A stretch of 64,000 bases of DNA, taken from contig QPGO01000021.1 in the NCBI GenBank assembly GCA_008632985.1, forward strand, positions 186,001-250,000, written 5' to 3'. This document shows, piece by piece, positions 1,101-58,779 of this stretch (position 1 is its first letter; each line of letters begins with the position of its first letter). Below the pieces are notes generated by a model, which was given only the letters and a program-made list of their open reading frames with translations, had not been told where the DNA came from and did no database searches. This DNA is from Psammoneis japonica. Its lineage: Eukaryota. A program made the position numbers and the translations under genes.

Positions 1101-1153
1101 CCAAGTCGGATGTCTGCCAGGATGAGATGGACATGGACAGGATTTCCCAAGGT

Positions 1154-3052: not shown

Positions 3053-3111
3053 CGCTCATCGATTTATTCAAGAGAGCGAAGGGAAAACAATGATGTGATG
3101 ATGTGATTGCT

Positions 3112-3286
3112 TGAACAAATTACCCTGCAGTTGTTTGCTAGAGAGCAAAGTTATAGAAAACATTGCAACATCGTGCTGCCATTTCCAAGATTGTGACTAG
3201 ATCTCGGATGGAGTCTTCCCGTTCCGAATCGCCAAATGTGCAGTTCTAAATGCTAGTTCCGATGAGACCACATGGCAAATTCTTCA
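3112..3286 (-). repeat. 3' LTR (TpA-mutated copy)
   Basis: Aligns without gaps to 9858-10032 with 16 substitutions. Confidence 0.95.
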
Positions 3287-3297
3287 GTCCCCTCAAG
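3287..3297 (-). promoter_or_regulatory. Polypurine tract
   Basis: Minus strand TTGAGGGGAC directly precedes the 3' LTR. Confidence 0.65.
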
Positions 3298-3551
3298 TCG
3301 TTGAAGCAGACACTGAATCGGCTTGATCCAATTTACACTCCGACAGTTTTAGCCACAACTGTGTGACAAGGAAACCCTGACAACCTGCTGAAACCCAAAT
3401 TGGGAAAGGGTGCCGGTGTGACTGTGCCCCTCCAAGAAGCGCATGGAAGGAATGTGAGCCAACATGCCCGCTGGTGCGAGCTCCCATGCTCGCTGGATGT
3501 AAGGAGAAACAGAAAAAGGAGCAGTCGAAGGAGCGACTGTTCATTCTTCTT

Positions 3552-6500
3552 TCATCCTTTATCATCAAACATGTCGTGTAGTGTCACACCAATGAGGCCA
3601 TCTCGTTTGACACCACCGCACATGATCTTGGTCGCAAGATCAGCTGGATTGCATTCCGATCTAATGTGTCCGGCAAGGGACTCACCCACAGCTGCCGACT
3701 CCCTGACGGCATGGCAGCACACAGAGTTAGACTTCTTCTTCAAAGTCGACTCTGGGCTTTGGGTGTTGTGGACAACTGCCATGTTGTCCCCATGAATGCA
3801 TGATGGTCCGCTGAGCGGGACTCCCATCATCCTGAGTTTGTGCCTTGGGCCTCGCAAAGCTTCCATGCCTTGCTTCACAGCCACAAACTCAGCACCAAAG
3901 ACTGAAGTCTCAATGGTGCTCTGGCGCTTGGAGAACCAGGCGACTGGTGCCATGTTCAAATGGACAAAATGACCAGTGCGGGAGCGTCTCGTCACTTTGT
4001 CATTCGCATGATCTGAATCTACGAATGGGCGTGGATCAATGTCCTTGCCCAGAGCTTCTGGTGCATTCGGTGGAATCGCCTCCTCTACGTTCCCGTAAAA
4101 TGCCTGCCAATCGCATTCCTTAAAGTCAGACATGTGACATCCGGGCACGTCGGATCGAATGCTGACGTTGCGCCATGTCTGTTCTTGAGGCATCCACGCA
4201 CATGCAGGACAGCGTCGAGATGACCTTCTCCAGGCATGGCGAGGAATGAGGCGAGTTCGGATGTCTCCACTGTGAGGTCGACTCGTCCAAGTTCCACTGT
4301 CCAGCGCAGGACTCCCACCTGCGACTGGTAAAATCAAGCCTGCTCTGCATCGAGCTTTGGCGCAATGTCGAGTTCCGGTCGACAGTCGCACGGAAACGGG
4401 GCCGTTGCCTTGCGTGGCAACGTCCATCCAGGAGCAGTCTCATCTGGACACCCCTCGACATTCTTGATGGCCTGTTGGATGTGCTTGCTGGAGCTCATGC
4501 TCCATGCGCAGACACCATTCAGCATTTGCACTTCACGGATTTTCGCCCCGAGGTGCATTTCAGGGTCACCGATGGATCCGGGTTTCATCTTGAAGCACCG
4601 GTCCAATTCCTTGAGCGCTGACGTAGCGTCGTGGTGTGCCATGAGCACGTCGTCTGCACACAACAGTGCATGGGCACAGCATCAGAATGCATCATCCGGT
4701 CGGACCTGTGCCTTCATCCACACATCTGGATCAGCCAGACACGGTTCCCACCCACGTGCAAGATGCCAAGTGGTTCCTGAAGGATGCACCTGCACTCTTC
4801 AATCCGTACAATGCGCGCTTGACTGTGGCACGCTTCCCAGCATTGGGTCCAAACTCAGGTCCTAGAGTTGCAGTGATCTTCTTGCTGTTAGGTGCGGTCA
4901 CACAGGCATTCTCAATGTCCGCAGCCTTAACCTCCAAGTCATTTAGAGCCGCCAGAGCAAAGGCAATCCTTGCACTTTCGCGGGAGATGACGCTTGCATG
5001 CGTCAGAGTCGCTGGAGGTTCAGCGGTGTGTCCCCCTGCAACATGACGAGCCTTCCGCTTGAAGTCTTGTAGTTTGACATCGAAGACCAAGTGGCAGCGA
5101 ACATGCTGGTAACCCACGAGCTCCTCGTCATCGTCGACAATCTCAAAGGCTTTTGAAACAACATCGATCTCCTTGTCTGTGGCATCCTGCCACAAGCGGT
5201 TGCCGTCAGCCTTGTCGATCTCGACTGCCTCTTCATGGGTCTTGGGAATGCGCACCCCGCACTTATGAGTGCGCTTGTGATGTCACTTGTTCACAGCGGC
5301 TACAATCTGCTGACGTTTCTTGAAGGTAAAGGGAACCCACCAGGCAAAAGCTGGCTCGTCCTCTGTGGATCTGGCCCTGGCACACTCTGCCATTTCCACT
5401 GGGTTGGATTCCTTCAAGTCAGACAGTCGTTCCCAAGATGTGGATCCGTCTTTCCATTGTGCGCAAAGATGCCAGCCTTTGGCAGTCTTGCGCATGGATC
5501 GACGTCCCCTGCTGTCTTGGATGAAGGCATCCTCCTTCTTGATTGTATGTCCGTCAGTCTTGTGATCAACGATTGCATCTAGTGACAAGCACTGGTTGCC
5601 TTCATTGTCGCACTGCGCAAACATGTTCTCAGCGATGACATTCGCCGCGAATTCTGCTTCCTGTCCATCAGGAAACTCGACCTCACACACACGAGTGTCA
5701 AGTGTCGGGTTTGGGTTGGCCCGTCCGGCAGGTGTGCCATCCGGATTGAGCTTGCGTCGCTTCACTGCCCCAGTCTGTTCCATGTCCCCGTGGGGCAGCA
5801 GCACTTCTGCATTGACACATTGATCGTAGGCTTCGTCTGGGGTGTCACCCTCATCGGAGGCACTGGACGGAACATCCTGTTCCTCGTCATCCTCGTGCAG
5901 TTCGAAGGTGGGAGCAATTGCGTCAGGGTCATCAAAGTCCCCGACGGTCACACCCGGGCCCAGCTTGACCTCTGTCAACCTGTCAAACTTTTCACGCAAT
6001 GCAAGGTGCGTCTTGTGTTCCTGCTCCTCGGGCGTTAGTGCCCTGCAAGACGAGCGATGGACGACCTGTCTGTTCTCCTTGAGCATCTTGGCCATCACAG
6101 CTGGGCCTGCATCCCTGCTCGGGCCCGGATGTCGCCCCAGGACTTCCTTGTCCTCGGGAAATGAGACTGCCGTGTCTCGAAACATGATCCAGTCGTGCCG
6201 GCCGAGTTCACATGTGTGCGAGATGTCAGCCGTCTGACCGGACACTGCGGTTTCTGGGACTTCACCGTCAAGCTCATGGATGTTTCGAGCGGTGTTAGAC
6301 CCAATGAGGCCTTCCAGTTCCAGGCAATCATCCCACAAGCATTTTGGGGCCTGTGACTTAACCATCTTACGCCCAACGCCTCGCTTGAGTTCGCGAATTG
6401 CGCCCTCTGCGGTGTTAGACCAAGGGGCATGTGGTTCAGTTTGTCTTGCATGGCAATCGGCCTCCCTGGCTTTCTTGCTAAATTGCCCCATTGTCTCTTC

Positions 6501-7676
6501 TCTCACCCCGTCTGCTGGCATGGTGTGGGGCACGCCTTCTTGCGCGAAGAGCAACGACAACGCCTCGTGCGCTGGACGTTTTGACTTCAATGGACAAGCG
6601 CGCACCCATCCATTGGACATTGCGAACACTTGCGTGCACACATTCCCTCGCCTGGACTTGACAGAGGAGAACATGGTGTTGGAGCACATCTCCTTTGAGA
6701 CACGCCTGCATCGCAGTTGTCGGTCATTGGTGCGGAAACGTCGTGACAGCGTAGGATGTAGAACTGTCCTGGCTCCACGCTGTGTCGCAACCTTGAGAGT
6801 GTTCTGAGCATCCTTGAGGCTGATGGACCAGTTCTCGGCCAAACGTTCAGCGTCAACCTTGAAGCTGCGCTTTGTCGTCTTGAGCGAAGACAGTTTCATG
6901 GATGCCAGCAGCAAACGGTCATTGCATGCATTGGAAACATCACGCAACGGCTGATTCCGCAGAGCGTCTGAGGTCTCTTGAGCTGCAGTGCGTGAGAGCT
7001 TCGTGCTCATAATGTGCACATGAGGACGCGCATCATCCCCGGTCTCATGCACTCTGCCAAGAGCATCTGTCATGGCTTCTTCCCCAGCGTGGAAGTCGGA
7101 GGAGGCGGGGTCCCATTCAGGGGACTCATGCGTGAGTTCGCACACGCTCCCGTCTTGGGCCGCATCCTCATGTTGAGCTAAAGTCGGGACACTGGAGGGG
7201 AAGCAGCTCGAGACTCCCTCCAGGTCTAAAGGTGCAGTTAATGAAGTGCCATTGGCGTCCTTGGCGACGATCGCATGTTCCTTGTCGTTGGGCTTTGTCA
7301 GCAGAAACTTCGGTTTTAATGAAAGTTCCACGTCATTCAGCCACAACTGCATTGGACACAGCAAGTTGTGCTCAAGGTGTGGCACATGGACTGCTTGGTG
7401 GACAACCAAGACGTGTGGGTGGCCCGTCTGAGGATCTGTGTCAGTGGCAGCTCCACTGACTGTACGCAGGCGCTTGCTGGCACCCAAAGTTGGGTCGCAC
7501 CCTTCCATGTCTGCTGGCCTGTCATGGTCAAGCAAAATTAAAGCGTGCTTGCCTGGTGCGCTCATGTCTGCATGACTGTCAACATCCGTGCGAGACTCTT
7601 CTTGCGACGGTCCTCCAACCTTTGTCTGGGTCAAGCATGAGGTCTGCAACGGACTGAGCCGCATGATGGCCACCAT
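3552..7676 (-). pseudogene. pol: Copia pol (protease, integrase, RT, RNase H), frameshifted
   Basis: DSHAD protease motif; TEPHAPWSNTAEGAIRELK integrase; KARHVAGGH, ADIENAC, KRALYGLKSAG and LLCADD (YVDD) RT; FVDSDHANDKVTRRSRTG and NPADLATK RNase H; spread over ORFs 5283-7676, 4731-5255, 4334-4663, 4085-4318 and 3552-4427. Confidence 0.92.
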
Positions 7677-7682
7677 TGGCTG

Positions 7683-9172
7683 TCACTTCCTGTGGCATCC
7701 AGCCTTGGGGACATGCTTGCGAGCAGCCTCGCGAATCAACGCCTTGTTGTTTCGGTTCCATTCCTGCTTGGCAGCCGGAGGCTTCATTGGCTCTTCAGTC
7801 TCAGATTCACCACCACCTTCATCGGATGAATCGTCCATTTGAGCTGAGATGGCCGCGACCGTCTTGGTCAGAGCTTTGATCTGCTTGGCGTTGCCGGCCG
7901 TCGTGGCCTTGCCACTCTTTGTGTTGTCACGTGTGTCGCGCAGCGACTTGAGCTTCTTCCCAGCCTGGGGAGAAAGCTTGCTGCACTCTTTGGGAGGGTG
8001 GCACTCATCCTCCACGTCATCGGCATGAATGATGGTTTCTCGTTTGCACTTCCCAGCCTTGAGAGCCGCAACACGAAGACGTTTCGCGTCGTTGTCCGGC
8101 TTGGACTGCTTGATAAAATCCTTAAATGGGACAATGCAAGCATCAAAATCGTTGCGCAACGTTGTGCTGGCCACAATCTGCGTCTTGACTGAGTCAAGCG
8201 ACGAGTCCTTGACACTTGCAAGGAGGTGGCGGACCTTGGATCGTGCATCGATCCCTGCATAACCACACTCGGTAAGCCGTCCAGAATCGCGTGTTGTTCG
8301 ACATGAACTCGCACGCAGCGCTCGAAATTCCAGTTGCGCTTTTCCCCGTGGCAGGACAGACTGGCGAGCTTCCTTTCGGCAGCGTTCGCCAGGTCATCTG
8401 CATTGTTGGGGCCCAAGAAATGATTGCAGAGGTTCAGGCAGGCCGTCCTGCCGTCCTGGCGCCTCTGGGCTGGCTTGACATAAGCCCAACTAGCATGTTC
8501 ACGCGTGATGCCGGCTGTGATCTCCCACACTTTGATGTTGTCGGCCGTGAACGTCTCGGCAGGTTGAGGGTTGTTCCCAGCAGTGAGATGGGGAGCCCTC
8601 GCGATCATCTCCTCGATCGGGTCGTTGTAGTTGGTGGCCGGGTCGTCGGCCTCGGCGGTTGCTTCCTGGTTCTCGCGGATGACGTGCGACAGTGGCATCT
8701 TCGTTTCGCCTCGGCATGCCCGCAGATGCTCCTGAATCGACTCGATCGTCTTCGGCCAGTCCTTCTTGATGATCGTCGGCAGTGTTTCGGGCAGTTCGTA
8801 GGTCTCTTCCGTGGGACAGAAGTGGCGGTGGCCTTGCACTCGTGCAAGGTTGATGTCAACAGCTCGCAACGTTCGCGACATGCGCTCGCAGTGACGAGCC
8901 GCATGCGCGGTGAGCTTGAGATTCATCTCGGTGCGCAAAGGAACTGACGTCCCTAGGTTGGGTTGGACGTTCCCACCTGCCGGCGGATTGCCTGCCGCAG
9001 CCCCTCCTGGGCGACGAATGTCCTCACATGAGGTCTCGACCTCGTGGTCGTCGAGGTGATGCAGTTCATCGACTGAGTCGATTCCCTGCTCATCGGTTAA
9101 AGCCGCGGCTGCCTGCGCGGTAAACCCCAGTCAGGTGCAGGCAGCACGCATCGCTGCTGCGACTGCTGCCAT
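7683..9172 (-). pseudogene. gag: Copia gag, frameshifted
   Basis: ORFs 7868-8938 and 7683-8174 with CoDi gag-like segments (LSHVIRE, LSCHGEKRNWNFE); lies upstream of pol; probable ATG at 9172. Confidence 0.75.
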
Positions 9173-9840
9173 GGTTGATGGTTACAAACGGTGTGTTTTA
9201 CGTGTCTCGCAAACTTTTGTGTGGTTGTGCACGAAAAGTGAGTGAGGTGCGCGAACTTCGTATCGCTTTTTCGCCGTTGGATAAAAGTAATCGTTATAAC
9301 TACGATCAACGTGTCTAGAGATAGCGGTTTATATTTAATCCTCCTGGATTAATATCTCTGATGGGATTCACATATAACGGCTACTCTTACAATCTACGTG
9401 ATCGTATAATGCATGTGCCGATCATCGGCGACGTGCTCGTTCCCTGGTCTACATTGACCAATAGTGAGGTTAAATATATAATTTATTAATTATATCGCGT
9501 TTACATATTCAACTTGGATATGTATATATGCTCACTCGGCGATTTCAAATCGCCACGCAGTTGCCTCCGAGATAACTTCGGTATGGAAATGGCGTCCCAG
9601 ATCCAATTTTGCGCTCTGTGTCCGCGTATTTACGCTCATAAAACACATCAGGACAGTCGATACTTTTGTTATCCATAAGTATTACGGCCGAACTAGCCCT
9701 GGGAGTTACATACTCGTCAAGCACGAACGTCGTCTCACGTTCGTCGATGTTTTCATGTCATCTCTGACAAGTTGGAACGAATGGTCGTATTGCGAGTCGT
9801 TCGCAAGCGTTGCAATCATTACCACTGTCGTTACGTACGG

Positions 9841-9857
9841 CGATGGCTCTGATAAAG
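9841..9857 (-). promoter_or_regulatory. Primer-binding site, tRNA-iMet-like
   Basis: Minus strand CTTTATCAGAGCCATCG follows the 5' LTR; shares TATCAGAGCC with canonical TGGTATCAGAGCC. Confidence 0.65.
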
Positions 9858-10032
9858 TGAATAAATTACCCTGTAGTCGCTTGCTAGAGAGTAAAGTTAT
9901 AGAAAACGTTGTAACATCGTGCTACTATTTCTAAGATTGTGACTAGATCTCGGATGGAGTCTTCCCGTTCCGAATCGCCAAATATACAGTTCTAAATACT
10001 AATTCCGATAAGACCACATGGTAAATTCTTCA
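9858..10032 (-). repeat. 5' LTR (TpA-retaining copy)
   Basis: TGAATAAATT...TTCTTCA, direct repeat of 3112-3286. Confidence 0.95.
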
Positions 10033-10394: not shown

Positions 10395-13300
10395 TCATTC
10401 ATCAAACTCGAATTCGCTGTCGCTGGGTTCATCCAAAGTAGCTCGACGTGGATGAGGAGGCGCCTTTGCCACCGAACTTCTGCGGCGGGGGCGCCTGGCA
10501 ATACTTGGTAGTGCCGAATCGCTCTCGTCGCTGGACGACAATTCAATAATTTCTGTATTCTTGGGCGGCTGCTTCCTTTCTGGAGCCTTCTTTGTAGGTG
10601 CGCTCTTCCTTTTCGTCGCCTTTTTCTTCCTGCCGTCCTTGGATGCAGCACGTTTGCGCTTTGTGGTCGTCGCCGCCTTTGGCTTTTTGGATGACGAGAT
10701 CCAGCCCGTCGACTCGGGAGTCCTTTGCTTGGTTGTAGACTTGGGTGTAGCCTTTGCCTTCTTCTTTCGAAAGGGGAGCCGAACAAAGACTTTAGGATCA
10801 GGAGATGACAGCAATCGATAAGCTGCGGGGCCGAGTTGCAGATACATTGTTGCGAAGCTGCAGAGGGCAACAGGGAAAGTGTGAGACGCATTGAATCATA
10901 TCGAGTATCGAAATCGGGAAGTTGAGACCAAGCGTACCCTTTGCCATTGTAGACAACGTTGGGATGAAAAATATCTTCCAGCATGAGGGCGACAATGATT
11001 CGACTGCATTCTTCGCCGTTGACATCTTGTCCAGGTGGATTCCGTTGAACGCTAAGACAGAGAGTTCGACAGTATAAGAGTTAGAATTCTGACATACCAG
11101 TACCGCACGACAGGCAGCGACCACGCAAGGTTCTTACCATTCTACAGCATTTTCTGGTTTGGTCCTCCACTCCTTGACAAGCATGGGTATGGTTTGGTTT
11201 TCGCCAATGCCAATTTTGTATTGCAGCAACTGCGTCACAGTCTTGGCATGAGCGCCGACATCCCGATTCTCCGTCGTGAGCTCCAATAAGGAATCAAAGT
11301 CTTCACTATCCGGTTCACCCAACGTCTTGAGAATGATCGCTCGACAGACAGCATCGTTCCCCGACGCCTGTGAGTAGCGCACCATGGACCAAAAGGATAG
11401 TTCGCTATTGTCACCGTGAATCATTTCCAACATTCGAGTCACGTCCTTTGTTGAATAGTAAAGAATACAATCGGCGGGTTTGCCATCCCGACCGGCTCTT
11501 CCACTTTCCTGATAGTAGGCTTCCAGCGTCTTGCTAAGACTAAGAAGCAAGTAGAGAACGAAAAAGTGCCACACGTCAGAGTTACATCACGCAGAACAAA
11601 CGTAAAAACACTATCAACAAGACCACAAGCATACCTATGATGCAAGACAAACCGCACATCGGGCTTGTTGATTCCCAATCCAAACGCAATCGTAGCCACA
11701 ACGACTTGAGTCTCGTTGCGCATCCACGAATGATGAATCATCTCCTTGACGCTGTCCTGGACCGAGCTGTGATAGGCCCGGGCGACAATGCCACGGTCAC
11801 ACAGCTTGTCCGCCACCGCGTCAGCCTCTTTGCGTGAAAACGTATAGATAATACCGGCATTGGTGGGATGCTTCTCCTTGATGAATGACGCCATTTCATC
11901 AACAACCTTGTCCTTACCGTCCACCTTGGGAACGACCGAGTAGTGAAGGTTGGGGCGGTTGGCTGATGTTTGAAAACGCAACAAGAAGGATCGTGTAAGT
12001 GACAAGAATGAATCTCAGAAAAATCAACAAGACCTTTTGACTTGACTTACCCGTGCTTCGAAAGAATTGATAGTTGCGTCCAAGCTTCAAAATGTTGCAC
12101 ACATCGTGTCGGACTCGATCCGACGCGGTGGCCGTGACGGCAATGAGGGGAATGCTGGGAAACATGCTCTTGAGAATGCCGAGACGAGTATAGTCTGGCC
12201 TAAAGTCATGACCATCCTGAGAGGCACAATGGCACTCGTCAATGACGAGCCTTCCGAGTCGATTGTCATTGTACAGTTTTTGCAATTCACTCTTGAGTCG
12301 TCCGCTCTTGTACACTTTTTCGGGAGTGACAAAGACGAGACAAATCCCCGAATGACGATCCCGTACCAAATTCCATCGCCTTGCGTGTTCGGAATTGCCT
12401 AGTTTGGACGTAAACTCAACGGCTGATCCGGGTGAAAAGCCATTCATTTGATCGACTTGATCTTGAATGAGCGAAAGGAGTGGCGACACGACCAGCGTCA
12501 CTTTGCGTTCGGGTCCACAGCCTTCCAAGAGTGCCGGCAATTGATAACAGAGCGACTTCCCTCCTCCAGTGCGCATAATGACAAAGGCGTCTCTACCGCT
12601 CATGGTGCAATTGATAATGTCCCGTTGTTGGCCACGAAACGATTGGATGCGAAAAACATTTTGAAGGACTTCCTGAACTTGACCCGACCAGGGATAGTTA
12701 TCTTGAGGTGGCAATGAATGCTGTGTTTCGTCTTGGTGGTCTTGTGGAATCCGAGCGACTGTACAAGCAGTACGGTCATGTCGTTGCTGTTGTTGTGGAG
12801 GTGGAAGAGAATGCAACGAGTCCATGGTAGCAAAACTGCTGCTTCTGGGAGTCGTAGAATCGCTGTTGCTAGGAGTCACGTCGGATTTTGCAGCAGATGA
12901 AGTAAAGTACTGATCCAGCGTTGCGTTCTTTCTACTGCTTTGTCTCTTGTTGGAAGAGCCATGCGTAATTTCCAGTTGACCCATCATTCCGGGTGCGCCG
13001 ATTGATGGAGGCCGGAGGGGTGATGGAACCACGTCTTCGTCATAAAAAGCTTCGATATCCCGTGCTTCATCATCATGTTGTTGTTGCTGCTGTGTTGCTA
13101 CGGGATCCGTCAGGTGTTCATCATCGTTACACGTCATGGCTGGGTCTGTCAAGAACTCGTCTGTATGACTCGTCATGGCCAATCGAGTCGACGGACTGCT
13201 GCTCATGACGACGGGGGATGTTGCTTCGTGCTCGTCCGAACTTACAGCCGCACCAACTTCATCCTCTGGCTGCTGCTGCTGTACAAGAACGTTTTGTTGT

Positions 13301-13479
13301 TCCTTTTGTGCTTCATCAATTTGAGCATCTAGTAATTCCAAATCTCGTTCAATACCCTTGATTTGTCGTTGAATTCCTATTGCTTCTCTCTCCAGAGCAG
13401 CCACCTGTTCAAGTTTTGCGTTGCGGCGTGCAACAAGTGCCGAGACAATGTCGTCGTTGCTGTTGCTCTTTTCGCTCAT
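10395..13479 (-). CDS. recQ: RecQ-family ATP-dependent DNA helicase (RECQL1-like), about 5 exons
   Basis: MRTGGGKSLCYQLP, IDECHC, GHDFRPDY, TATA, ATIAFGLGINKPDVRFV, YYQESGRAGRDG; GT-AG introns near 12050-11963, 11634-11540 and below 11137; basic C-terminal tail. Confidence 0.93.
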
Positions 13480-13664
13480 TCTGCTGCAACTAACAGATCT
13501 TATGGCCTCTATAGAATACGACTCAGTCTATGATGTGACGTGAAGGCAAGTCTACGAATACAAACGAGAGCAACAGCAACCGCAAGGCCGATGATGTGTC
13601 ATTTCCAGTTTTTCTTTCTGCCGGCGACGCACTCCTGAGCGATTTGAATTCCACGCGCGCTTCA

Positions 13665-14767
13665 GGCATTTTTTTACCTGGTGTGGGCAGCAGGTTTTGA
13701 TTAACTCGACTCAAGCGAAGCGAGAGTCAACTCGCAAAAGTAACCCGGATGTTAAAGTGGGGAGAACAAACAACTCTGCACAAGCACCCATCACCAAAGG
13801 CATCTCCTCTCAAAAGGACAAGGAACAACATTTGAAGCAAAGTGCAACATGCAGACAAGGAGCTTGTGCCAAAACAGAGTGTCTGGCCACAGCACCAGTG
13901 GCTGCAACAAAAGGCAAAGCAGCAAGAAGCAAAAAAGATGCACAGAGAGCCAGAGGAAGAGGGGCAAGAGCCGGGGTGCAGAGAGGAGAGTGGTGTGTGC
14001 TGTGCACTGAAGAACTGGGTGGAAGGGGTGAATAAAATGCCAAAAAGGGAAAATTGTGAGACTGTTTTGGGCACCAAAAGCAAGCAGCAGTTGAGAGATG
14101 CTCTGCAGCGTGTTGTGCTGTGACCCAGCAGCAAGAGAGCTGGCTCCTGCCCCCCAGCTGGCCCCAGCCAAGAAGGCCGAAGGTTGTCCGCAGCCAAGCA
14201 GCACCCCACAAAGTGTTTTCAATGCCATTTTGGGGTGTGTGACAGCTGCGCCAGTTGAGATTTGCCTCGCAATTTGGTGCAAAACAAAGTGTGGCGTGCA
14301 GACAAGGAGAGTTTGTGCAGAACCAGTGTGCCCAGCTGCAGCTCTGATGGCTGCAAGAGGCAAAGCAAAAGAAGCCAGGATGGCACCACATGCCAGCTCT
14401 CATAGAGAGCCCTGCTGCATGCTGCATCTTGAAGAAACAGGTGGAAGGGATGAACAAGATGCCAAAGAGAAACTTGTGAGACGGCTTTGGGTGCCAAAAG
14501 CACAAGCAGCTGAGATGCTCTACACAGCACAACCCAGCAAGAGCTCATTGCCACCACAGCAAGCCAGCTGAGAAACTCTGCATGTTGTCCATGACCAAGC
14601 AACACCTTGCAAACTGCAAAGTGTTCTCAGCACCACTTTGGGGTTTGGCCCAGTTGTTGTTGAGAGCTGCCTCACAAAGAACTGCTGCTTGGATGCTTGT
14701 TGCAGATCTGGAAAATCATCTCTTTGCAGCTTTGGCAAGGAGCTCCCCAGCATGATGATCATGAACA

Positions 14768-14801
<34 letters not shown>

Positions 14802-15452
14802 AAAAGCAGTGCTCTGTGTGTTGGAGCAGCAAGAAGCCAGAGCAACAACAAAAAGAAAAGACAAAAAGCACAGACAAGTTCACAGGCATGCAGCATCTGA
14901 GGTGGCCAGAAATGATCTCCGGCACATGCCAAAGCCCAAGGTGAGCAGCAGCAGAAAGCAGAAGCAGGGCAAGGAAACAAAGGCTTGCTTTTGTGAGGAT
15001 GGCATGAGCAAAGTCAAGAAGCCACAGTGCCAAGCTTTTCGGATGAATTGCACAATTTTTGTCAAGAAATCAAAAACAAACAGGAAAATCGGCGAAAGCG
15101 TCATTGAGACATCATGCCGTAAAGTGAGACACCGGCGGCACGCGTCATTGTGGTGCTGCAGTTTGTTGCGTGGTGCCTGCGAAGCACACATGTCCATCGA
15201 TGCATGTCGGCAATCCAAACTGAAAATTGACCCATCACCTTTCTGTCTTTCTTCACAATTGTGGATGTCACTTTGTGGCGTGCATGGGGGAGATTTGCAG
15301 CACACATAGAAGCAGAATGACCCCACAACATCAGCAGCTCTTTATGTGCACTACAAACTTTATAGCGCACATGGGGCTGCTTGCTTAAAGGATGACCGTC
15401 TGCGTCAGCAACGTCGTCATGTACGCTGACCCACACCATTTGACGACCTGCC
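13665..15452. mobile_element. Non-autonomous TIR element, copy 1 of tandem dimer (Merlin-like)
   Basis: Ends GGCA-N10-TGGTGTGGG and CCCACACCA-N10-TGCC; dimer flanked by 8-bp TSD GCGCTTCA (13657-13664, 17252-17259); superfamily inferred from termini only. Confidence 0.8.
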
Positions 15453-15459
15453 TTCGCTG

Positions 15460-17251
15460 GGCATTTTTTCACCTGGTGTGGGCAGCAGGTTTTGATTAAC
15501 TCGACTCGAGCGAAGCGAGAGTCAACTTGCAAAAGCAACCCGGATGTCAAAGTGGGGAGAACAAACAACTCTGCACAAGCACCCATCACCAAAGGCATCT
15601 CCTCTCAAAAGGACAAGGAACAACATTTGAAGCAAAGTGCAACATGCAGACAAGGAGCTTGTGCCAAAACAGAGTGTCTGGCCACAGCACCAGTGGCTGC
15701 AACAAAAGGCAAAGCAGCAAGAAGCAAAAAAGATGCACAGAGAGCCAGAAGAGAAGAGGGGCAAGAGCCGGGGTGCAGAGAGGAGAGTGGTGTGTGCTGT
15801 GCACTGAAGAACTGGGTGGAAGCGGTGAATGAAATGCCAAAAAGGGAAAATTGTGAGACTGTTTTGGGCACCAAAAGCAAGCAGCAGTTGAGAGATGCTC
15901 TGCAGCGTGTTGTGCTGTGACCCAGCAGCAAGAGAGCTGGCTGCTGCCCCCCAGCTGGCCCCAGCCAAGAAGGCCGAAGGTTGTCCGCAGCCAAGCAGCC
16001 CCCCCCCAAAGTGTTTTCAATGCCATTTTGGGGTGTGTGACAGCTGCGCCAGTTGAGATTTGCCTCGCAATTTGGTGCAAAACAAAGTGTGGCGTGCAGA
16101 CAAGGAGAGTTTGTGCAGAACCAGTGTGTCCAGCTACAGCTCTGATGGCTGCAAGAGGCAAAGCAAAAGAAGCCAGGATGGCACCACATGCCAGCTCTCA
16201 CAGAGAGCCCTGCTGCATGCTGCATCTTGAAGAAACAGGTGGAAGGGATGAACAAGATGCCAAAAGAGAAACTTGTGAGACGGCTTTGGGTGCCAAAAGC
16301 ACAAGCAGCTGAGATGCTCTACACAGCACAACCCAGCAAGAGCTCATTGCCACCACAGCAAGCCAGCTGAGAAACTCTGCATGTTGTCCATGACCAAGCA
16401 ACACCTTGCAAGCTGCAAAGTGTTCTCAGCACCACTTTGGGGTTTGGCCCAGTTGTTGTTGAGAGCTGCCTCACAAAGAACTGCTGCTTTGATGCTTGTT
16501 GCAGATCTGGAAAATCATCTCTTTGCAGCTTTGGCAAGGAGCTCCCCAGCATGATGATCATGAACAAAAGCAGCAGCAGCAGCAGCAGCAGCAGCAAAAA
16601 AGCAGTGCTCTGTGTGTTGGAGCAGCAAGAAGCCAGAGCAACAACAAAAAGAAAAGACAAAAAGCACAGACAAGTTCACAGGCATGCAGCATCTGAGGTG
16701 GCCAGAAATGATCTCCAGCACGTGCCAAAGCCCAAGGTGAGCAGCAGCAGAAAGCAGAAGCAGGGCAAGGAAACAAAGGCTTGCTTTTGTGAGGATGGCA
16801 TGAGCAAAGTCAAGAAGCCACAGCGCCAAGCTTTTCGGATGAATTGCACAATTTTTGTTAAGAAATCAAAAACAAACAGGAAAATCGGCGAAAGCGTCAT
16901 TGAGACATCATGCCGTAAAGTGAGACACCGGCGGCACGCATCATTGTGGTGCTGCAGTTTGTTGCGTGGTGCCTGCGAAGCATACATATCCATCGATGTA
17001 TGTCGGTAATCCAAACTGAAAATTGACCCATTACCTTTCTGTCTTTCTTCATAATTGTGGATGTCACTTTATAGCGTACATAGGGGAGATTTGTAGCGTA
17101 CATAGAAGCAGAATGACCCTATAACGTCAGCAGCTCTTTATGTACGCTATAAACTTTATAGCGTACATAGGGCTACTTACTTAAAGGATGACCGTCTGCG
17201 TCAGCAACGTCGTTATGTTGTACGCTAACCCACACCATTTGACGACCTGCC
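15460..17251. mobile_element. Non-autonomous TIR element, copy 2 of tandem dimer (Merlin-like)
   Basis: About 1.79-kb direct repeat of 13665-15452, separated by a 7-nt spacer TTCGCTG. Confidence 0.8.
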
Positions 17252-17482
17252 GCGCTTCACGCGAATTGGAAGGCCGTGTATACTGCGCGCGTAACGCGCG
17301 ATAGCCGTTGACGGTTCCACGTCAGCAGAAATTTGGAATTTCCTACCAACAGAAACAGAAAGCGTATCTTTCGAATTTTTCTGCTGTCTCCTCTATGTTG
17401 GTTGCATCATTCATTCATTTGTATTCTTCTTTTTGGAGAGTTCACGTGTCGAATCTTTCATGGTTCTGACCTTGTACGAACC

Positions 17483-20400
17483 ATGACGAAAATGAATCCC
17501 CTTTCCAAGATTATCAAGCATGATAAGGATGCTGACAGCGATGAATCATCGGATGACAAGGAAAAGCGTTCGATGAATCCCTTTACAAAGCTCATCAAGA
17601 AGGAGAAGGATGAGGACGACTCGGGTGATGATGATGACGAAAAGGAAAAGAATCTTTTTCAAACCATGAATCCCTTTACCAAGCTCAAGAAGCATGAGGA
17701 CGATGACGACGACTCGAATGATGATGACAAGAAGGAGGGAAAAAGTCTCATGAAGAATCCCCTTTCGAAACTAAGTATAAAAAAGGATGCAAAGGATGAG
17801 GACGACTCGGGTGATGACGAAGACGAAAAGGACAAGAATCTTTTTCAAACCATGAATCCATTTACCAAGCTCAAGAAGCATGAAGACGACGACTCCGACT
17901 CGAATGATGGTGACAAGAAGGAGGAAAAACGTCTCATGAAGAATCCTATTTCGAAGTTAAATATCAAAAAGGATGATGAATCCACACCGCTCATCGGCAG
18001 AATGCTGCCCCACCGCAAACCTCGCCACTCGGTTCTAGCCACCATGGAACACAAGGAGGGCAACAAGGCGTGGCGGTCATGGGATGTCAAGATGCCCCCG
18101 GCAAAGAAGACCATGGTGGGTGGCAAGCTCGTTCCCAATCCCGGAGAAGCTCTGACAGGCTTTATGCGTCAGAAACCGAGTCGTGTTGTGATTGAAGTCG
18201 TACAGCTTGAAGGCAGTGATAGCGATTCGGACAATGAAGAAAAGGTGTTGCAAGAGGGTCTTTTGCGAGGCAAGAGCACCACGCATGTCAAGGACGAGGC
18301 CATTGATGAAGATGTCGTCATGACCATGCGTATTCTCAGGCCCTCGGATGAAGTGGAGGAGGACGAAAAAGAGAAGGGAGCCTCCATTGCACTGGACCCA
18401 AAAGACAAAGCACTCAAGCCCGTGACCTTTCCCGGTTGGTGCGATGTGTATCATTTTGATCCCGACGATGTTGAACTCCTCAGTTACTCTGGTATGCACG
18501 CCGTCTTGAAGCTGGGTCGCGGTGCCGAGACCATGGTGCGGCAGCTCAATTTTGCCAGCAAGGAAGAGTGCGATTCCTTTTGTCAAGTTGTTGAGTCGCT
18601 TGGCAAACTCGAGGATGATCGGATGCAACGCAAGATTGAATATTTCTTGGAACAAAACGACGGAACCTACAAGGCGGGAGAAGCTATTAACATTTTGGTG
18701 GAGATTGTTTCCGGAGTGCGATTGCCCATTGCGGACATTACCAGTACGGACGCGTACTGTGTCGTGTATTTGGGACGAAAGGAAATTCACCGGACAAAGT
18801 ATATTTCCAGCACGTGAGTAGCGTTGTTGTTGTGCAGTGAACTGAGAAACTACTAGGACTAGCCTGTGCTGACACGCGTTCTGAATCGCTTTCTGTCTAG
18901 AATCAATCCCATTTGGACCATTGACAACGGCTCGTTGTTTTTGATCCAGACGACTCCCGAAGATTTCTTTGGCAGCAGCAGTGGTCTTACGATATCGGTG
19001 CGTGACTATGATGCCATGGGTAAGAACGATGTTTTGGGTAAAGTTATTGTCGACCAGGACGATTTGATTGAAGGCACGGGAGAGCGCATCGAGCACAAGC
19101 TCATGTTGGATCAAGAGTTCAAGGACGCCAAGGACGCACGTCTGGTGTTGCGCTATCGTCGAGCGACGCCCGATGACATGGACTTTATGGAGCGCTATGC
19201 TGAACTAAAGATGAAGAAGAAGGGCATTGTCATGGGTGCCGTTGGTGCCGTGGCTGCCGTGGCGGAGGACAAACCAATTGTCGGAGCCTACGCGGACGAA
19301 GCCTATGTGGCGCCCAGAGCCTTTCGCGTCAAGCTGCTGCAGCGTGAAACGAAAAAGGACAAGGAAGGGAATAGACTGGTAAGTGCTCTTTACGCTTTGT
19401 ACCGAATGCGCTGTTTCTTGAACATGCATTGATTCTTGTAATGTTGATGCTGGTATTCGCAGTTCCGTGTAAAACCAGAACCCGATCCTAGTAGGCCGGA
19501 AGAAACCAAGTGGTTAACCAACGCTGAAATCGACAAGGAGGCCCAGAAGCCATCTACGAATTGGATGGAGGTTGGTTCCGGAGGCCTTGGAAAGCTTTTC
19601 TTTGAGGTGATTAGCTGTGACGGGCTACCCAACTTGGACGACGGGGTTACCAGCGGAAAGACGGATGCTTTTGTCAGCCTGATTTTTGAAGACGCAATCG
19701 TTAATACAGACGTCATCAATGATACGTTGAAACCCCGTTGGCCTCCTTGGACGCAGCGTGCATTCATCTTTAACGTGCTTCACCCATCGTCTCAGGTGCT
19801 GCTCGGTGTTTTTGATTTTGACGACACGTCCTCGTTGGATGGTCATGATCCCGTTGGAAGGGTTTCCATTGACGTGACCAACCTGCGGCCGTCTACAGAA
19901 TATGTCATGGAATATGACCTTTACACGAGCGCTCTCGTCTCCAAGCGTGAGTCATTCGGCTCTGTAAAGGTTCGCATGCGTGTCGAATGGGAGGATCAGA
20001 GGAAGGCGCTCATGGCGGCGTTCAAGCTTCCTCCAGACATTTATGTCAATGTGCCCACGCATCGAGACTTTCAGTGTGCTCGCTACACTTCTTTTGGAGA
20101 GGTAAGTGAATTCTTCCGTGTCGGCGTTAATTCAGCTTGAGTCAGTATTACCTGATTGTTACTTCCCTTCCCATCTTTAGTGTAACGTGGAGGAGTACGA
20201 CACGGAGGTACTGACGTCGTACATTGAAGAGATTCGACAGTATGAGGCTCTTCAATACATGGTCAGGGACGCGTTGTTCACTGTGCTGTTGTGGCGTGGG
20301 CACTTACCAGTCACATTCTGGGTACCTACTCTCCCTCTTCTTCCGGCCGATCCCGAGAATCCAAAGAGTTTTCTTCGTCGACTCTTCAAACCCAAGAAGC

Positions 20401-27527: not shown

Positions 27528-30500
27528 CCGTAGAATTCTACGTGTTTTGAGTACTGGTAAGCGTACCTCCGACAGAAATCTGAATCGGCACAAAGATGAC
27601 ATCATGAGCCTTTCACCTGTTGTTTCAGCAGCAGGTAAAGGAGCATCGAGAATCTGTAACAAACCATCAGAAGAAGCACAGCATCAGCAAACGACAATGC
27701 CAGAGACCAGAAGCGCCACCAAGTGTTGGCGCATTGCTGAAGGGCCAATCATTCCTCCGCTCCATTTGCCGTCGAGTGTCGTTGGTGAAATCCAGGACAC
27801 TTGGATCTGGCATCGCTTGTTTGCATCGGTGCGCCTGCAACAGTCAATTGAAAAAAGCAAGCACACAAACATCATCACTGGCTTTGGAGCACCATTGATT
27901 TTTGCACTGCAGGCGGATCCGTTGCGTCAAGAATCACAGACTGTCAACTTGAAGCATTGCTCCGCAAAAGTCATGCTGTTCAACGCTGTCGCTTTCTCAA
28001 CCTCATCGGCTGCACGCAAACAACAGGGAACAGATTCAAAGCGCTTTGTGGTTCTTTGTTGCTGCCAGAGATTGGCATTTGAAGGAGAATCAAAATGTCC
28101 TGATGAGAAAGAAACCAAGTGGCCATGCATTGAGCAAACTGAATCTCGACTTTGTTTTGCCCTTGCTCTCGTCCATGCCACAGATTGCGCCAATGCCACT
28201 GCTGCAAGACAACTCACTCAGACTCTCCCTCATCAAGATCTGGAAGCAACAGCACAATTTTGCCTGTTGTTGTCGGAACTGCACAAACCTGCCGTGGACA
28301 TTGCGATTGCATCATTGCGAGTGTGCCACCCAAAGACGACTTGTTGTGGGCAATGAGCTTTTCTCATTGCAAGAAATGCAAGAAATGCACCTGTTGTGGC
28401 TTCAAGGATGGACATCCTGTTAAGGAAGACTGCACTCATTGCATGGTTCAATGTTGCCAACCGTGTGATGGACATGAGGACAAATGTCCCAACCTCATCA
28501 TGTGATGTGCTTGTGCATGTCCTGTGGCTTGTCAGAATGTGGAAAATTGTCACCAAGGAATGTTTTGTGATGGTTGCTGTGATCATTGTTGTCAAATCAA
28601 TGAAGGCTGTGATGACAGCAGCAGCACATGCAAAAGTTGTGGGGGCACCTTCTGCATGAAATGCCGTGAATCCAATCAGCATGTTTGTTCGCCTTTGAGC
28701 GAGGCCGAGCAAAATGATTGAGTCTTGCGTTCTTTGATGCACCAACTCTGAAGTGAATCCATTTCTGAACTGCATTCTCCAGTGGCAGGATCTGCAAACT
28801 CTCTAGATTGCAGGGCACTCAAGTGGCAGTGTGTGTGGCTGTCTCTTAGTCGCATCTGCTGTGCCACAGCCTTTTGCTCTGCCTGGCATTGAGCCAGACA
28901 CAGAAAATCATCTTGAAAGAGCGTGAGCTTGAACAGCACCTGCTGTGCTCTCAACAGCCACCAATGGGTTGTGATGGGCTTCAGTGGCCCACAAATCTCT
29001 GGCTGGAGTTGAGCCAGCAACTGCCACCGGCCAGATCCAGAGCAGCCATTGAAAGAAAATGACCATGTTCTGTGGCACTTGCAAGCACTCTGGCAAAAGA
29101 AAAAGATCAAGTGGCCAGGGGGCAAAGCAAAAAGAGCATCATGCTCTGGCAGAGGTTTGAAAATCTCATCCGGGCCACCCCCTTCCTGTGGTGCATGAGC
29201 ACAATTGAATGTCTTTGAGCTGGAAAGACTGAAATCAGCTCACTTGTTTGAGAATGAATTCTGCCAAAAGGACTTGATGTGTGAATGACGCAGATCTGTC
29301 TGCCGCAATCTGTTCCCATGGGTGGTCAGGGGATGGCAGCAATCAACACAAATCATCAAGCCAGCTGGAGCTGCAATGGTTGTTGCAATGTGCATTGGCA
29401 ACAGGTGTGCAACAGCAATTGGCAACTGCTGCAGTCTGCTCAAGTGGGGACATCACGTGGTGCTTCATCATGTGCATGGCTCTGCTTGCTGTGGCAGTGT
29501 GCCTTGAAGCAACCTGCTGCACAATCACTCCATGATTGGGGTGGTGGAAGAAGTGGCATGTGAGAATGCCCAGGCTCATGCCAATGAGTCATGGGAAGAG
29601 CTTGCGAGTCAGATGTGCTGCTGGTGGTTGACTTGAGTTCAAAAGCAGCAACATGAGCCAGATGAAGTGGGGTCAAGTTCAGCACAAAGTGTGTGGTGCA
29701 AGAGCATTGCACACAAGTGCCACTCATTGCAACTCTGCAAAAACTGTCAGCTGCAATCAAGTTGCATGTGCTGCACATTGCTGGGTTGGCCACAATTTGC
29801 AGTTGAAGCGGATTTGTCAGCACCTGCAATTGCATGCAGCCACATTGTCAACCGCAACCTGTGATGCAATTTCTGGCAACTTTGGTTCTTGTGCCAACCC
29901 CTGTGAGAGTGGTGGCTTTCAGAGGCATGATGACAATGTGTCAAAAACACACCAAAGTCCTCACACAACAATGGCCAATTTTCTATGATGATTGCTTCAC
30001 AACCCCACAACTGCGGACAATTGATTTGTTTTTTGTCTCATTTGAAAAGGCAAGCTTTTGCCCCTCTCTCGCAACTCAATCTGGGCATCCTCACTTGAGC
30101 TGTGGGAAAGAAGACAACAGATGCAAAACTCCCTTTTAAAGCACTGCACAAGAACTGCTTCACACAGCATTCAACAGCAAGACAGTGCCAGAGACCAGAA
30201 GTGCTGCCAAGTGTTGGCTTTTTGTTGATGCTGATGGGCCAATCAATTCTTCAAAAAAAGTGTGCTGCTGTGGCGTGGTGTTTGTGTTTGGTGCAAGATT
30301 GGTGAAGCCCCGCTGAACTTCTGTTTGAACTGCCTTCTTGACATTGTCTGGAAGCTTGGTCACTTGTGAATGTGAGTGTCAAGGATGATCCTGCAGTCCT
30401 TTGACAGCTGGGCTTTTTGCAGCATCTAGACACACAAGGGGGCTTGCTCCAGCACTCTGCTTTGCCGCCTGCCATGCCAGCTCAAGCTTGCTCTGCAGAG

Positions 30501-31400
30501 GGGAGAGGGGGCAGTGCACCAGCCAAGCTCCCTGGAGCAACATCTTTTGCATCTGATGGTTTTGAGAAGACTTTTTGCATTGGAAATAAATTGTGAACAT
30601 TGTCAGCTGTTGCTGCTTCCTGGGCAACAAATGTGTCAACAATCCTGATGGTCTTCACGAGAGGCAGAGAGTGAGCTGGATGACAAACCCAGCAGAAACT
30701 TAAAAAAGGTGAGAGCTGCTGCACACACCTGTGACAGCTCTTGTCTCAAGAAAGAGTTGGGAGAAATTGTGGTTGCACACTTGCACAACAATCTCTTGTG
30801 TCATCATTTCATGGACAGCGCAACAAAAGTTGAGCAGTTCTTGGTCGAGGGGTGCTCGCATGGCTCCTTTTTAAGGGAGACAAAGAGCCCAGCAGACAAG
30901 AGCATGAGGGACAGCAGAAGAAGGCTGGAAAGAGGCTGTTAAAGCAGACAAGCAGAAGGGGTGCACAATGCAGTGCACAGGGCATTTCAAGGAGGGGGCG
31001 CATCTGTGAACGAAGTTGTGGGGATGAGTGGAGAGGGTGTGACATGTGCATTGTTGCACCGGAGAGTCTGGTGAGTCATCCACTGAAAATGAGAGGAGGA
31101 GTGATGCATGCTGCCAAAGTGATTGTTGGTGAGTTGGCTCCAGGCAAAGTCAGCAGAGGGAAGGAGAAAGGGAGGAGAGGTGGTCGTCGAGAGGAAAAGG
31201 CGCGCAGAGCATGGAGCTCCACACCAGAGTCTTGCAAAAGGCGGGGGTGGGTGAGGGCCAGGGAGTTTTGGGTTGGGAGCAGGCGGTAGAAAGCAAAGAA
31301 CTAAAGAGGAAGCGGTGAAAGAAGCCAAGACCGCCCAAATCTTCCAGTTCCAAAAGGAATGCGACAGCTCCTGAGAACAGCTTGGAACACAACATGACAC
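27528..31400. mobile_element. Heavily mutated transposon-derived block
   Basis: TA nearly absent; internal dispersed repeat GCCAGAGACCAGAAG near 27700 and 30187; left end CCCGTAGAATTCTACGTGTTTT resembles the reverse complement of 55970-55995; boundaries approximate. Confidence 0.55.
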
Positions 31401-48524: not shown

Positions 48525-49399
48525 CTAGATGGGAAGGACAACAACAATGCAGCGGCCGTGCACACGTTGGATCTTTTCGTCGGATCGCAAGTAGGATCGT
48601 TTCGATTTTTTTTCTACTCGGAAGATGGTGCCATTGGCATTGGGCTCGTAGATTTTTGAGACAATGCTGAAAGAATGTTCCAGTGGATGGTGACGAATAC
48701 CTGGTTCCAAAGAAAAGTTGGGCACAAAGAGCACATCGCGACCTCCCTATTAGGGCACGAGTTGGAACCGTACACAACCTACCGCTGATATATTAGAAAG
48801 AACGCTGAAAAGGTCTTGCCTCACCATCATTGTCGCTGCATCCAGAGATCCTGCGACAAACATCAGGTGCACTGTTTCCATTAGCAGGAGGATGCAGGGT
48901 CGTAGCCAGCATTGCATGTTCAATGCAAGCGTTTTAGAAAAGGGCCACTGCTAGAGGATAGTAAGTTGAAACAGTGTAAAAACCACACAGCAGCTAGAGC
49001 ATCTACGCTGTGCTACAATCCCATCGTACAAAAACTTTTCCATTGATAGTTCATTGTTTAGCTTTGCCAGATCCTCGCGGTCCTGTTGCCAGCTGCTGCT
49101 GCACTTTTGCTTACAAAGAGATTGCCAGCCTCTTGACAACAAAATTCACCCTGCAGCTCCACTCCCTGACTGTTTTGTGGATGCATCATCCAACACCAGT
49201 GATGAAGAAATGTGTGTGGGGATGCTTCAGAGTTTGCCATTTCGGGAACACTGGGAAGCTTGAACATTGCCCATCGGCTCATCAATGTGAAGGTTCCCCA
49301 TCTTGTCAACACATGGAAAGTGTGATGCCATGGTGGCCTTGTGGCCTTGTTGCCCCCCTGCTGTTGACATTCGCGACTCAAGCACTGGCAGAGAAGCAT

Positions 49400-50270: not shown

Positions 50271-50299
50271 GATTTCTTCTGTGTTTGTCTCACAATGAG

Positions 50300-58773: not shown

Positions 58774-58779
58774 ATCATC

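Follow-up and report, generated by a model that had tools for sequence, protein, structure and literature searches.

Introduction

Hypermutation of DNA that is specific to TpA dinucleotides has, in the literature that we found, a single precedent, a 2026 preprint on Bigelowiella natans (Mettrop et al., 10.64898/2026.01.13.699255). Its main text reports that 230 of 231 de novo mutations in two viral inserts were A>G or T>C at TpA, that mutation at TpA ran at about 1000 times the background, and that TpA-poor clusters, rich in CpA and TpG, are found genome-wide. Reverse transcriptase (RT) and DDE domains are described there as enriched among TpA-poor coding sequences, and adenine deamination is proposed as the chemistry, with an ADAT2-like protein as candidate. 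Deaminase clades that are specific to stramenopiles have been described elsewhere (PMC3239186, as far as the consulted part of that article goes). Here we compare with these systems a 64-kb stretch of diatom nuclear DNA (the window, within which all coordinates are numbered), of which about 27 kb are mobile-element remnants with a signature of TA loss. Two elements carry the argument, a tandem dimer of a transposon-like unit (13665-17251) and a copia retrotransposon (3112-10032), and in both of them the same sequence has lost TA in one position and kept it in another.

ADAR and APOBEC enzymes are a well-known case of deaminase-type, context-dependent hypermutation against selfish nucleic acids. 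In dinoflagellates the modified base 5-hydroxymethyluracil (5hmU) is, according to the part of the literature that we cite, enriched at repeats and linked to the silencing of transposable elements, and a preference for T in TA and TC is cited in the same article (PMC11572971). From diatoms no report of TA loss or of A>G hypermutation in repeats was found in the literature covered, which lay outside the subscription journals.

Results

A tandem dimer with unequal ends

Self-comparison resolves 13665-17251 into two units of 1.79 kb, arranged head to tail as a dimer; the unit is non-coding and transposon-like. Copy 1 (13665..15452, plus strand, with the ends GGCA...TGCC) and copy 2, its partner (15460..17251, plus strand), have their abutted ends separated by a 7-bp spacer, TTCGCTG (15453..15459), and are 96.9% identical over 1795 alignment columns, with 46 substitutions at 1785 aligned positions. 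The differences are concentrated at the ends. In the right zone (unit positions 1516-1788, 273 bp) the copies differ at 25 positions, and at 22 of these the outer copy 2 has TA where the inner copy 1 has TG or CA; the other three are CG in the outer copy and TG or CA in its partner. There are no differences in the opposite direction and none of other kinds. The outer right end (16983..17227, plus strand) retains all of its 29 TA dinucleotides, and the hypermutated inner right end (15187..15428, plus strand) has 7, so that 22 of 29 TA and 3 of 14 CG are lost. Both the direction of the TA changes (22/22, p = 4.8e-7) and the density of differences in comparison to the interior (25/273 versus 16/1415, p = 5e-11) depart strongly from chance.

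At the left ends the roles are reversed. In the left zone (unit positions 1-100), three sites have TA in the outer left end of copy 1 (13665..13753, plus strand; sites 13675, 13741 and 13753) and CA in the inner left end of copy 2 (15460..15548, plus strand; sites 15470, 15536 and 15548), and there is one CG-type difference in each direction. The left-zone direction, 3/3, gives p = 0.25 when taken alone. This contrast between the ends had been noticed in an earlier reading of the dimer (the original prediction), and the strings that it quoted for the right ends are correct (17068-17084 for the outer end and 15272-15288 for the inner), its rough counts come close to the 22 TA and 3 CG changes, and the reversal that it described on the left is also present, on three sites. 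That the ends derive from different subfamilies, which was the outcome named there as fatal to the idea, is rejected by the finding of 0 non-signature substitutions in either end zone, signature sites and one 3-bp indel being all that separates the units there.

The interior of the unit (1415 bp) has 16 differences, namely 8 non-signature ones and 4 each of TA-type and CG-type, both of these balanced in direction (2 against 2). In both copies its TA observed/expected ratio is 0.04, that of CG 0.16-0.18 and that of TG/CA 1.7-2.0, and the TA ratio of the outer right end is 1.13. The choice between TG and CA agrees between the copies everywhere in the interior, which means that the interior was already TA-free when the dimer formed. 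Judged from this alignment, only the two former ends that are now internal have mutated since then.

A perfect 8-bp target-site duplication, GCGCTTCA, surrounds the whole dimer (13657..13664 adjoining the outer left end and 17252..17259 adjoining the outer right end), and neither copy is flanked by it individually. The unit has GGCA at its start and TGCC at its end, plus a 9-bp inverted block, TGGTGTGGG, and read by eye its ends match as inverted repeats at 16 of 23 positions. A Pfam scan found no family in any unit ORF (open reading frame) of at least 110 aa, and no transposase ORF. An 8-bp duplication such as the one at the two outer ends is what we take to be linked to hAT-like elements; other superfamilies presumably also give duplications of 8-9 bp. 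On these features the dimer is classified as a composite of two copies of a non-autonomous, DNA-transposon-like element, and this composite either came in by a single insertion or was formed by duplication at the site. At least four copies of a AGCGTACAT-type motif, in both orientations, are found in the right end (17068-17172) and none in the left; these motifs, repeated near the terminus, look like subterminal transposase-binding repeats and may have that function.

Loss of TA with distance from the outer ends

Scoring took in every site with TA in both copies or with TA in one and TG or CA in its partner, which gave 39 sites and 78 observations. TA was kept in 14 of 14 observations at 0-100 bp from the nearer outer end of the dimer, in 19 of 19 at 100-300 bp, in 3 of 3 at 300-600 bp, in 4 of 6 at 600-1200 bp and in 9 of 36 at 1200-1800 bp. 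Up to 600 bp all 36 scorable TA were kept, and beyond it 29 of 42 were lost (p = 1e-11). The last TA that is retained before the first loss lies at 392 bp, and the first loss at 672 bp. The distance tally over the aligned copies thereby agrees with the claim that the mutation is position dependent, TA loss rising with distance from the outer ends, but the protected zone of 100-300 bp that had been proposed is too short, the spared zone in the dimer measuring at least about 390 bp.

Copy number of the element

Depth was taken from assembled contigs (Logan) of one public run from one sample; heterozygosity and rare variants are not resolvable from such contigs. Over 306 contigs, each of the unique flanks has a depth of about 60 and the element, which is multi-copy, one of 120-3300. 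The outer right end is covered by a 255-bp contig with one difference and a depth of 337 against about 60 in the flanks, so the TA-rich version of the right end is common to several copies. A 3-bp TGT duplication at 17216-17218 is private to the outer copy, and both copy 1 and the sole other contig there are without it. Contigs cover both outer junctions with 0 differences and cover the inner junction too; at the inner junction and spacer their depths sum to about 201 (flanks about 60), and one of them is short of one spacer base. The one target duplication around the dimer and this depth together suggest that the dimer moved as a unit. The claim that the mutation was post-insertion is therefore upheld in one sense and not in another: it came after dimerisation, but with the single target duplication and the junction depth of about 201 it may have come before the present insertion. 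Two exact strings from the element gave 0 matches each in metagenome contigs.

TA is the ancestral state

Four sites are found in three states, TA, TG and CA (14033-4, 15236-7/17032, 15281-2/17077 and 15285-6/17081). Only TA is one step from both TG and CA, and TA is thus ancestral at these sites. Among 40 of the 83 variant places at which other copies of the element differ from the locus, there are 6 adjacent CA<->TG double changes, 4 places with TA at the locus and TG or CA in other copies, and 2 with CG at the locus and CA in other copies; among the same 40 there is none with TA elsewhere where the locus has TG or CA. An internal sub-repeat of the unit (13830-14230 against 14272-14638) has CA<->TG at 13 of 38 adjacent double differences, and in the TA-poor tandem repeat at 24083-24593 such pairs account for 5 of 8 and 2 of 5. 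A genic paralogue pair, used as control, has no such change among its 13 double differences, and TA-type differences run almost equally in the two directions (6 versus 7). From these site patterns we read the process as TpA>TpG/CpA with TA ancestral, and the changes given in the original prediction, TA>TG/CA and CG>TG/CA, are borne out.

A copia element with unequal terminal repeats

The second natural experiment is a retrotransposon on the minus strand. Its long terminal repeats (LTRs) were found as a 175-bp direct repeat in the self-comparison; they have TG...CA ends on either strand, differ by no indels, and surround a gag-pol region. The 5' LTR (9858..10032, minus strand, 175 bp) lies at the edge of a TA-poor domain and the 3' LTR (3112..3286, minus strand, 175 bp) within it, flanked by TA-poor DNA on both sides. 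The internal region (3287..9857, minus strand) is TA-poor from 3287 to about 9000 and has normal TA in its leader, from about 9173 to 9857, so that TA becomes scarce only at a depth of about 1 kb into the element.

The LTRs differ at 16 of 175 positions. At 12 of these the edge LTR has TA and the inner LTR TG or CA (p = 4.9e-4), another two, of CpG-type, agree with this direction, and the remaining two are transitions of other kinds; no difference is in the opposite direction. The inner LTR has lost 12 of 19 TA, with 7 left, and the edge LTR none of 19. Both LTRs of a retroelement are copied from one RNA template at integration, and the differences between them must therefore have arisen after integration. 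We take the two alignments, of the dimer and of the LTRs, to show that sequence with repeat DNA on both sides is mutated, and that the identical sequence escapes mutation where unique genic DNA lies within about 0.4-1 kb. For the dimer, its copies place the mutation after dimerisation; action after integration is proven by the copia LTR pair only, from the comparison of its two repeats.

A further trace of the process is found in the coding region. TAY>TGY and TAY>CAY are the codon changes expected from TA loss, and would turn tyrosine (Tyr) into cysteine (Cys) or histidine (His). A 799-aa ORF (5286-7682, minus strand) has all of its 8 conserved Tyr columns changed, to Cys (5), His (2) and Asp (1), and when six homologs were tested alike 0-4 of 29 columns were changed. 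Tyr makes up 0.1% of the residues of the ORF, where every one of 15 homologs has 2.75-3.83%. A library check of the ORF gave, among the 150 best representatives, 2 with less than 1% Tyr. These two, the copia-like proteins P0163 and P0266, are 45-50% identical to the ORF of the window and have 0.3% and 0.7% Tyr, and their conserved Tyr columns are all Cys or His (3/3 and 4/4). These Tyr-poor relatives are a hint that the same process may act on elements elsewhere.

The assignment of the element rests on several features. The 799-aa ORF is 41-51% identical to 13 diatom-type copia polyproteins (about 1400-1900 aa, with PF07727), one of which is named as Nitzschia, and a copia-type RT is recognised by way of this ORF, whose 15 matching polyproteins all have PF07727; the direct RVT_2 match (E = 1.1e-6, 28.9 bits), which is to another minus-strand ORF between the LTRs, is below the gathering score of 31.6 bits. 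A candidate primer-binding site, TATCAGAGC, lies 3 nt inside of the 5' LTR and a candidate polypurine tract, GAGGGGAC, precedes the 3' LTR. TATCAGAGC presumably matches the initiator tRNA-Met, and within the 64-kb window there is no tRNA gene for comparison. The flanks have the 4-mer TGCT common to both sides; a 5-bp flanking duplication is usual for copia elements. Taken together, the repeats and the reading frame identify 3112-10032 as a Ty1/copia element on the minus strand. Between its 5' LTR and the first gag ATG lies an unusually long leader of about 680 bp (9173-9857), which is both TA-rich and CpG-rich.

Rate, strands and CpG decay

With 22 of 29 TA lost, the inner right end of the dimer has undergone 1.42 events per TA site, and the 8 non-signature differences in 1415 bp of interior, shared between two lineages, amount to 0.0028 per site. 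TA loss exceeds non-signature change about 500-fold in the dimer and, in the LTRs, about 175-fold, a rate two to three orders of magnitude above the background, as gauged against the non-signature differences in the same alignments. A>G and T>C at TpA make up nearly all of the changes (22/25 in the right zone and 12/16 in the LTRs). CpG is lost 3.5-6 times more slowly than TA in the same copies, and all five CpG losses in the right zone and the LTR pair fall in the copies that lose TA.

The 22 changes of the inner right end have 12 CA and 10 TG outcomes, and by a hand count they form 10 strand runs where 11.9 are expected at random. Such a near-random alternation of strands points to many independent single-site events on both strands; processive, strand-wise tracts are rejected by the 10 runs among 22 changes. 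Over both elements there are 19 CA and 15 TG outcomes, so that both strands are struck. In a hand tally of 48 sites, not machine-checked, a C follows on the 3' side of 16 of 34 edited and 9 of 62 unedited adenines (Fisher 0.0012).

The signature in the rest of the window

By composition, blocks with the signature are found at 1-9000, about 24000-25500, 27657-31287, 49112-55667 (with an N gap at 52196-52378), 56189-58003 and 58807-60620. Those at 27657..31287 and 49112..55667 are TA-free and CG-poor, and those at 56189..58003 and 58807..60620 are TA-free and belong to the first and second unit of a 2.6-kb tandem duplication. The TA observed/expected ratio is 0.00-0.25 in the blocks and 0.4-1.4 elsewhere in the window, and TA-free gaps extend up to 1510 bp, where ordinary window DNA has one TA per 15-30 bp; the signature is confined to foreign or repeat DNA, with a sharp regional contrast. 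From 800 to 9000 the TA ratio is 0.05-0.29 with CG near normal, and thus the two losses are separable and TA loss is the faster.

Several ORFs of 200-800 codons are open in more than one frame and on both strands of the TA-poor blocks (e.g. 50342-51154, 54658-55665 and 13794-14544), and translations of ORFs in these blocks have 0-1% Tyr and raised Cys and His. Frames stay open there because TAA, TAG, TTA and CTA have been erased. A Pfam scan of 81 ORFs of at least 110 aa in the TA-poor blocks gave RVT_2 as the only relevant match, and the other long ORFs are best read as by-products of stop loss rather than as genes.

A 633-codon frame at 1157-3055 (minus strand) has weak similarity to leucine-rich repeat (LRR) proteins (12-18% query coverage, E from 1.5e-13 to 4e-6). 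With 7.4 TA per kb and 0.3% Tyr it is as TA-poor as the repeats, and its CpG is near normal. It could be either a host-type gene within the hypermutated domain or the cargo of a mobile element, and if it is single copy it counts against homology as the trigger.

The units of the tandem duplication (56147-58779 and 58764-61396) each consist of a 1.8-kb TA-free block and a 0.8-kb part with normal TA. Their only non-junction differences are one TA/TG (58149/60766) and one CG/CA (56223/58841).

Neighbouring genes

The dimer lies upstream of two divergent ORFs, inserted into their upstream region of about 410 bp. On its left is a DEAD-box helicase ORF (11914..13479, minus strand; Pfam DEAD, E = 2.5e-24), the ATG of which is 186 bp from the dimer, and on its right an acidic, repeat-containing ORF with no Pfam family (17483..18817, plus strand), with its ATG at 232 bp. 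Two paralogous Methyltransf_24 ORFs (47631-48524 and 61381-62340, both plus strand) are 83% identical in DNA and stand each beside a TA-free block. The window as a whole is eukaryotic in character, its ORFs being long and poor in introns. For a Der/EngA GTPase ORF (39355-40974, minus strand) no match exceeds 67% identity, and the matches named by organism are all diatoms (Ditylum, Thalassiosira, Skeletonema, Chaetoceros and others).

Discussion

The most rational explanation to the unequal copies is a hypermutation TpA>TpG/CpA that acts on DNA after integration or duplication, depends on position, is accompanied by a slower CpG decay and is carried out by an enzyme in silent repeat chromatin. 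We would give it a probability of roughly 0.65. The enzyme would modify a base at TpA within silenced, cytosine-methylated repeat chromatin; a silent, methylated domain would follow from the CpG decay in the same copies (5/5). Our first choice of chemistry would be deamination of adenine to hypoxanthine, which is read as G, on either strand, and our second oxidation of thymine to 5hmU, read as C, by a TET/JBP enzyme. The silent domain may retreat from active neighbour genes or from the promoter end of the element itself, and active chromatin, either that of neighbour genes or that of the 5' LTR, would deny the enzyme, or whatever guides it, access to the first 0.4-1 kb. A guiding role of chromatin or promoters is plausible, and the chromatin-domain-guided process of the original prediction is a reasonable hypothesis. 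The original prediction had the ends protected by flanking promoters, and it gains from the two divergent ORFs that adjoin the dimer (186 and 232 bp) but loses from the copia element, where the spared zone is about 1 kb and adjoins the 3' side of an ORF. The family would keep its TA-rich termini because only copies with intact ends go on transposing; selection of this kind probably explains the family-wide TA only in the last 90 and 270 bp.

Several observations weigh against this explanation. The spared edge of the copia element is also its own promoter end, so that distance from the edge and identity as 5' LTR are confounded, and the edge adjoins the 3' side of the neighbouring ORF. The spared distances are unequal, at least 390 and less than 672 bp in the dimer and about 1 kb in copia. 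In the dimer, selection for transposable outer ends would likewise enrich intact outer ends, and the mutations of the inner ends may predate the present insertion, in which case the promoters here may be irrelevant. An 800-bp island of normal TA (58004-58806) lies unmutated between two TA-free blocks; the duplication that it belongs to is very young, with 2 non-junction differences in 2.6 kb. TA sites lost in both copies are not scorable, and such double losses hide older events without creating asymmetry. The evidence consists, finally, of two natural experiments in one window.

Selection could also act without any edge effect, if mutation was patchy at a former locus and only dimers with intact outer ends moved on. 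The single perfect 8-bp duplication around the whole dimer, the inner-junction contig depth of 201 against about 60, a family that is TA-free save the last 90 and 270 bp, and a right end with the repeated subterminal motifs typical of transposase-binding ends are all in agreement with such survivorship. We nevertheless hold it to be unlikely, if worth keeping in mind, since the 22 inner-end changes in 10 strand runs represent many events and yet 0 of 29 TA were lost in the outer end, since interior sites show the same distance trend, and since the copia LTR pair is equally asymmetric in a place where no selection for mobility acts after integration. The centre of the dimer being its most mutated part, one might think instead of a trigger by homology, RIP-like (after the repeat-induced point mutation, RIP, of fungi) with opposite chemistry and strongest in the middle of a tandem repeat; the targets are repeats, and the diatom DNMT4 enzymes are related to fungal RID according to the consulted part of one study (PMC9998398). 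The outer right end, however, exists in several near-identical copies and yet is untouched, and inner and outer ends have identical homology partners and different fates, so that homology alone is ruled out as the trigger: the spared end has the partners of the mutated one. As only one LTR of the pair is mutated, and the 2.6-kb tandem duplication (2 non-junction differences) is almost unmutated in its TA-containing part, such a homology-triggered process seems to us rather improbable. It is also doubtful, and we would not expect it, that a passive bias of silent chromatin, with unrepaired TpA lesions or replication errors and neither a dedicated enzyme nor a role in defence, could be the cause. 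The signature does track domains rather than sequences, and CpG decay, itself passive, occurs in the same copies. But the specificity is near-absolute (25/25 and 14/16 differences are signature-type), the rate excess is 175-500-fold, and TA is saturated (observed/expected 0.00-0.07) where other substitutions are at about 0.6%; the Bigelowiella process is, moreover, turned on in some lines only, as reported in the main text of the preprint (10.64898/2026.01.13.699255).

The remaining alternatives have little in their favour. RNA editing or RT error, fixed by retrotransposition, would fit an A>G change with a 5' U, which is the ADAR-type preference as discussed in the same preprint (10.64898/2026.01.13.699255). 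It is refuted for the dimer and for copia: the LTRs come from one RNA template and their differences are post-integration, both strands are struck (19 CA and 15 TG outcomes), and the transposon-type ends of the dimer and its 8-bp target duplication leave no RNA stage for this element. We regard it as very improbable, in line with the original prediction, which had considered it unlikely. Equally remote is an assembly artefact in which haplotypes or family members were stitched in tandem; the sole run with this stretch may be the assembly's own data, but read-built contigs span the outer junctions (0 differences) and the inner junction, the spacer differs from the flank sequence, and the LTR case is independent of the dimer. 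A polarity opposite to ours, with a RIP-like C>T at CpA/TpG having made the TAs of the outer ends and the edge LTR, could draw on a TA observed/expected ratio that, at about 1.0-1.1, is higher in the copia leader and the outer right end than in genes. It is rejected, and its chance is in our view negligible: the three-state sites would need two steps from CA to TG where one each from TA suffices, the copia ORF retains none of its 8 conserved Tyr, kilobases of sequence have a TA observed/expected ratio near 0, and the TA-rich right end is common to several copies.

The diatom case, with its signature at saturation, extends TpA hypermutation to a major, partly genetically tractable algal group, and suggests that it may be widespread in the lineages of stramenopiles, alveolates and Rhizaria (SAR). 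It shows that ordinary transposons are targeted too, beyond viral inserts, and it provides two internal controls, the dimer and the LTR pair, for action on integrated DNA. That the identical sequence escapes where genic DNA is within about 0.4-1 kb favours the chromatin domain, and not homology, as the basis of targeting. A practical consequence is that gene callers will report spurious long ORFs of TA-free regions as genes, whose proteins are without tyrosine. We hypothesize further, and tentatively, as the odds seem to us to lie somewhat on the other side, that diatoms have a genome-defence mutator that is the mirror image of fungal RIP, an enzymatic TpA->TpG/CpA change in the double-stranded DNA of silenced elements, and that its action stops, at nucleosome scale, where silent chromatin ends. 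The mutator would be a chromatin-aimed adenine or thymine editor, old in SAR and of common origin with the Bigelowiella system.

In comparison to fungal RIP, the process is alike in being DNA-level, dinucleotide-specific, restricted to transitions, saturating, repeat-inactivating and post-integration. It differs in chemistry, as RIP changes CpA to TpA and raises TA whereas the diatom process changes TpA to CpA or TpG and erases it; the C>T at CpA that would raise TpA is not what is seen here, the polarity being reversed. It differs also in aim, as RIP is triggered by homology and strikes both copies, while in the diatom identical copies differ by position. Of the duplicates here only one is mutated, with 0/29 TA lost in the outer and 22/29 in the inner end, and 0/19 and 12/19 in the LTRs. 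ADAR and APOBEC have RNA or single-stranded, pre-integration targets and act on one strand, unlike the diatom process, which concerns integrated DNA and both strands. The 5hmU of dinoflagellates is a base modification at repeats within the SAR group and a candidate chemistry for T>C at TpA, but it is an epigenetic mark, for which neither mutagenicity nor erasure of TA is demonstrated in the part of the article on which we draw. CpG methylation of diatoms and the decay of 5-methylcytosine (DNMT5a in Phaeodactylum, in the consulted part of PMC9998398) would give the CG>TG/CA changes in the same copies and blocks, and are unable to produce TA loss.

The Bigelowiella system remains the closest, as far as the main text of the preprint describes it. 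Its lineage is another, a rhizarian (chlorarachniophyte) where the present case is a diatom, and its targets are two insertions related to nucleocytoplasmic large DNA viruses (NCLDV) and virophages, as against the DNA transposon, the copia element and the other repeats of the window. It was seen as de novo mutations in accumulation lines, and ours is a comparative case only. Its NCLDV region has a TA observed/expected ratio of 0.45, and the diatom blocks are saturated at about 0. The sparing of edges, the controls that the LTRs and the dimer supply, and the CpG decay are features of the diatom case that are absent from the main Results and Discussion of the preprint. What the two have in common is the TpA>TpG/CpA signature, its regional confinement and a large excess of rate.

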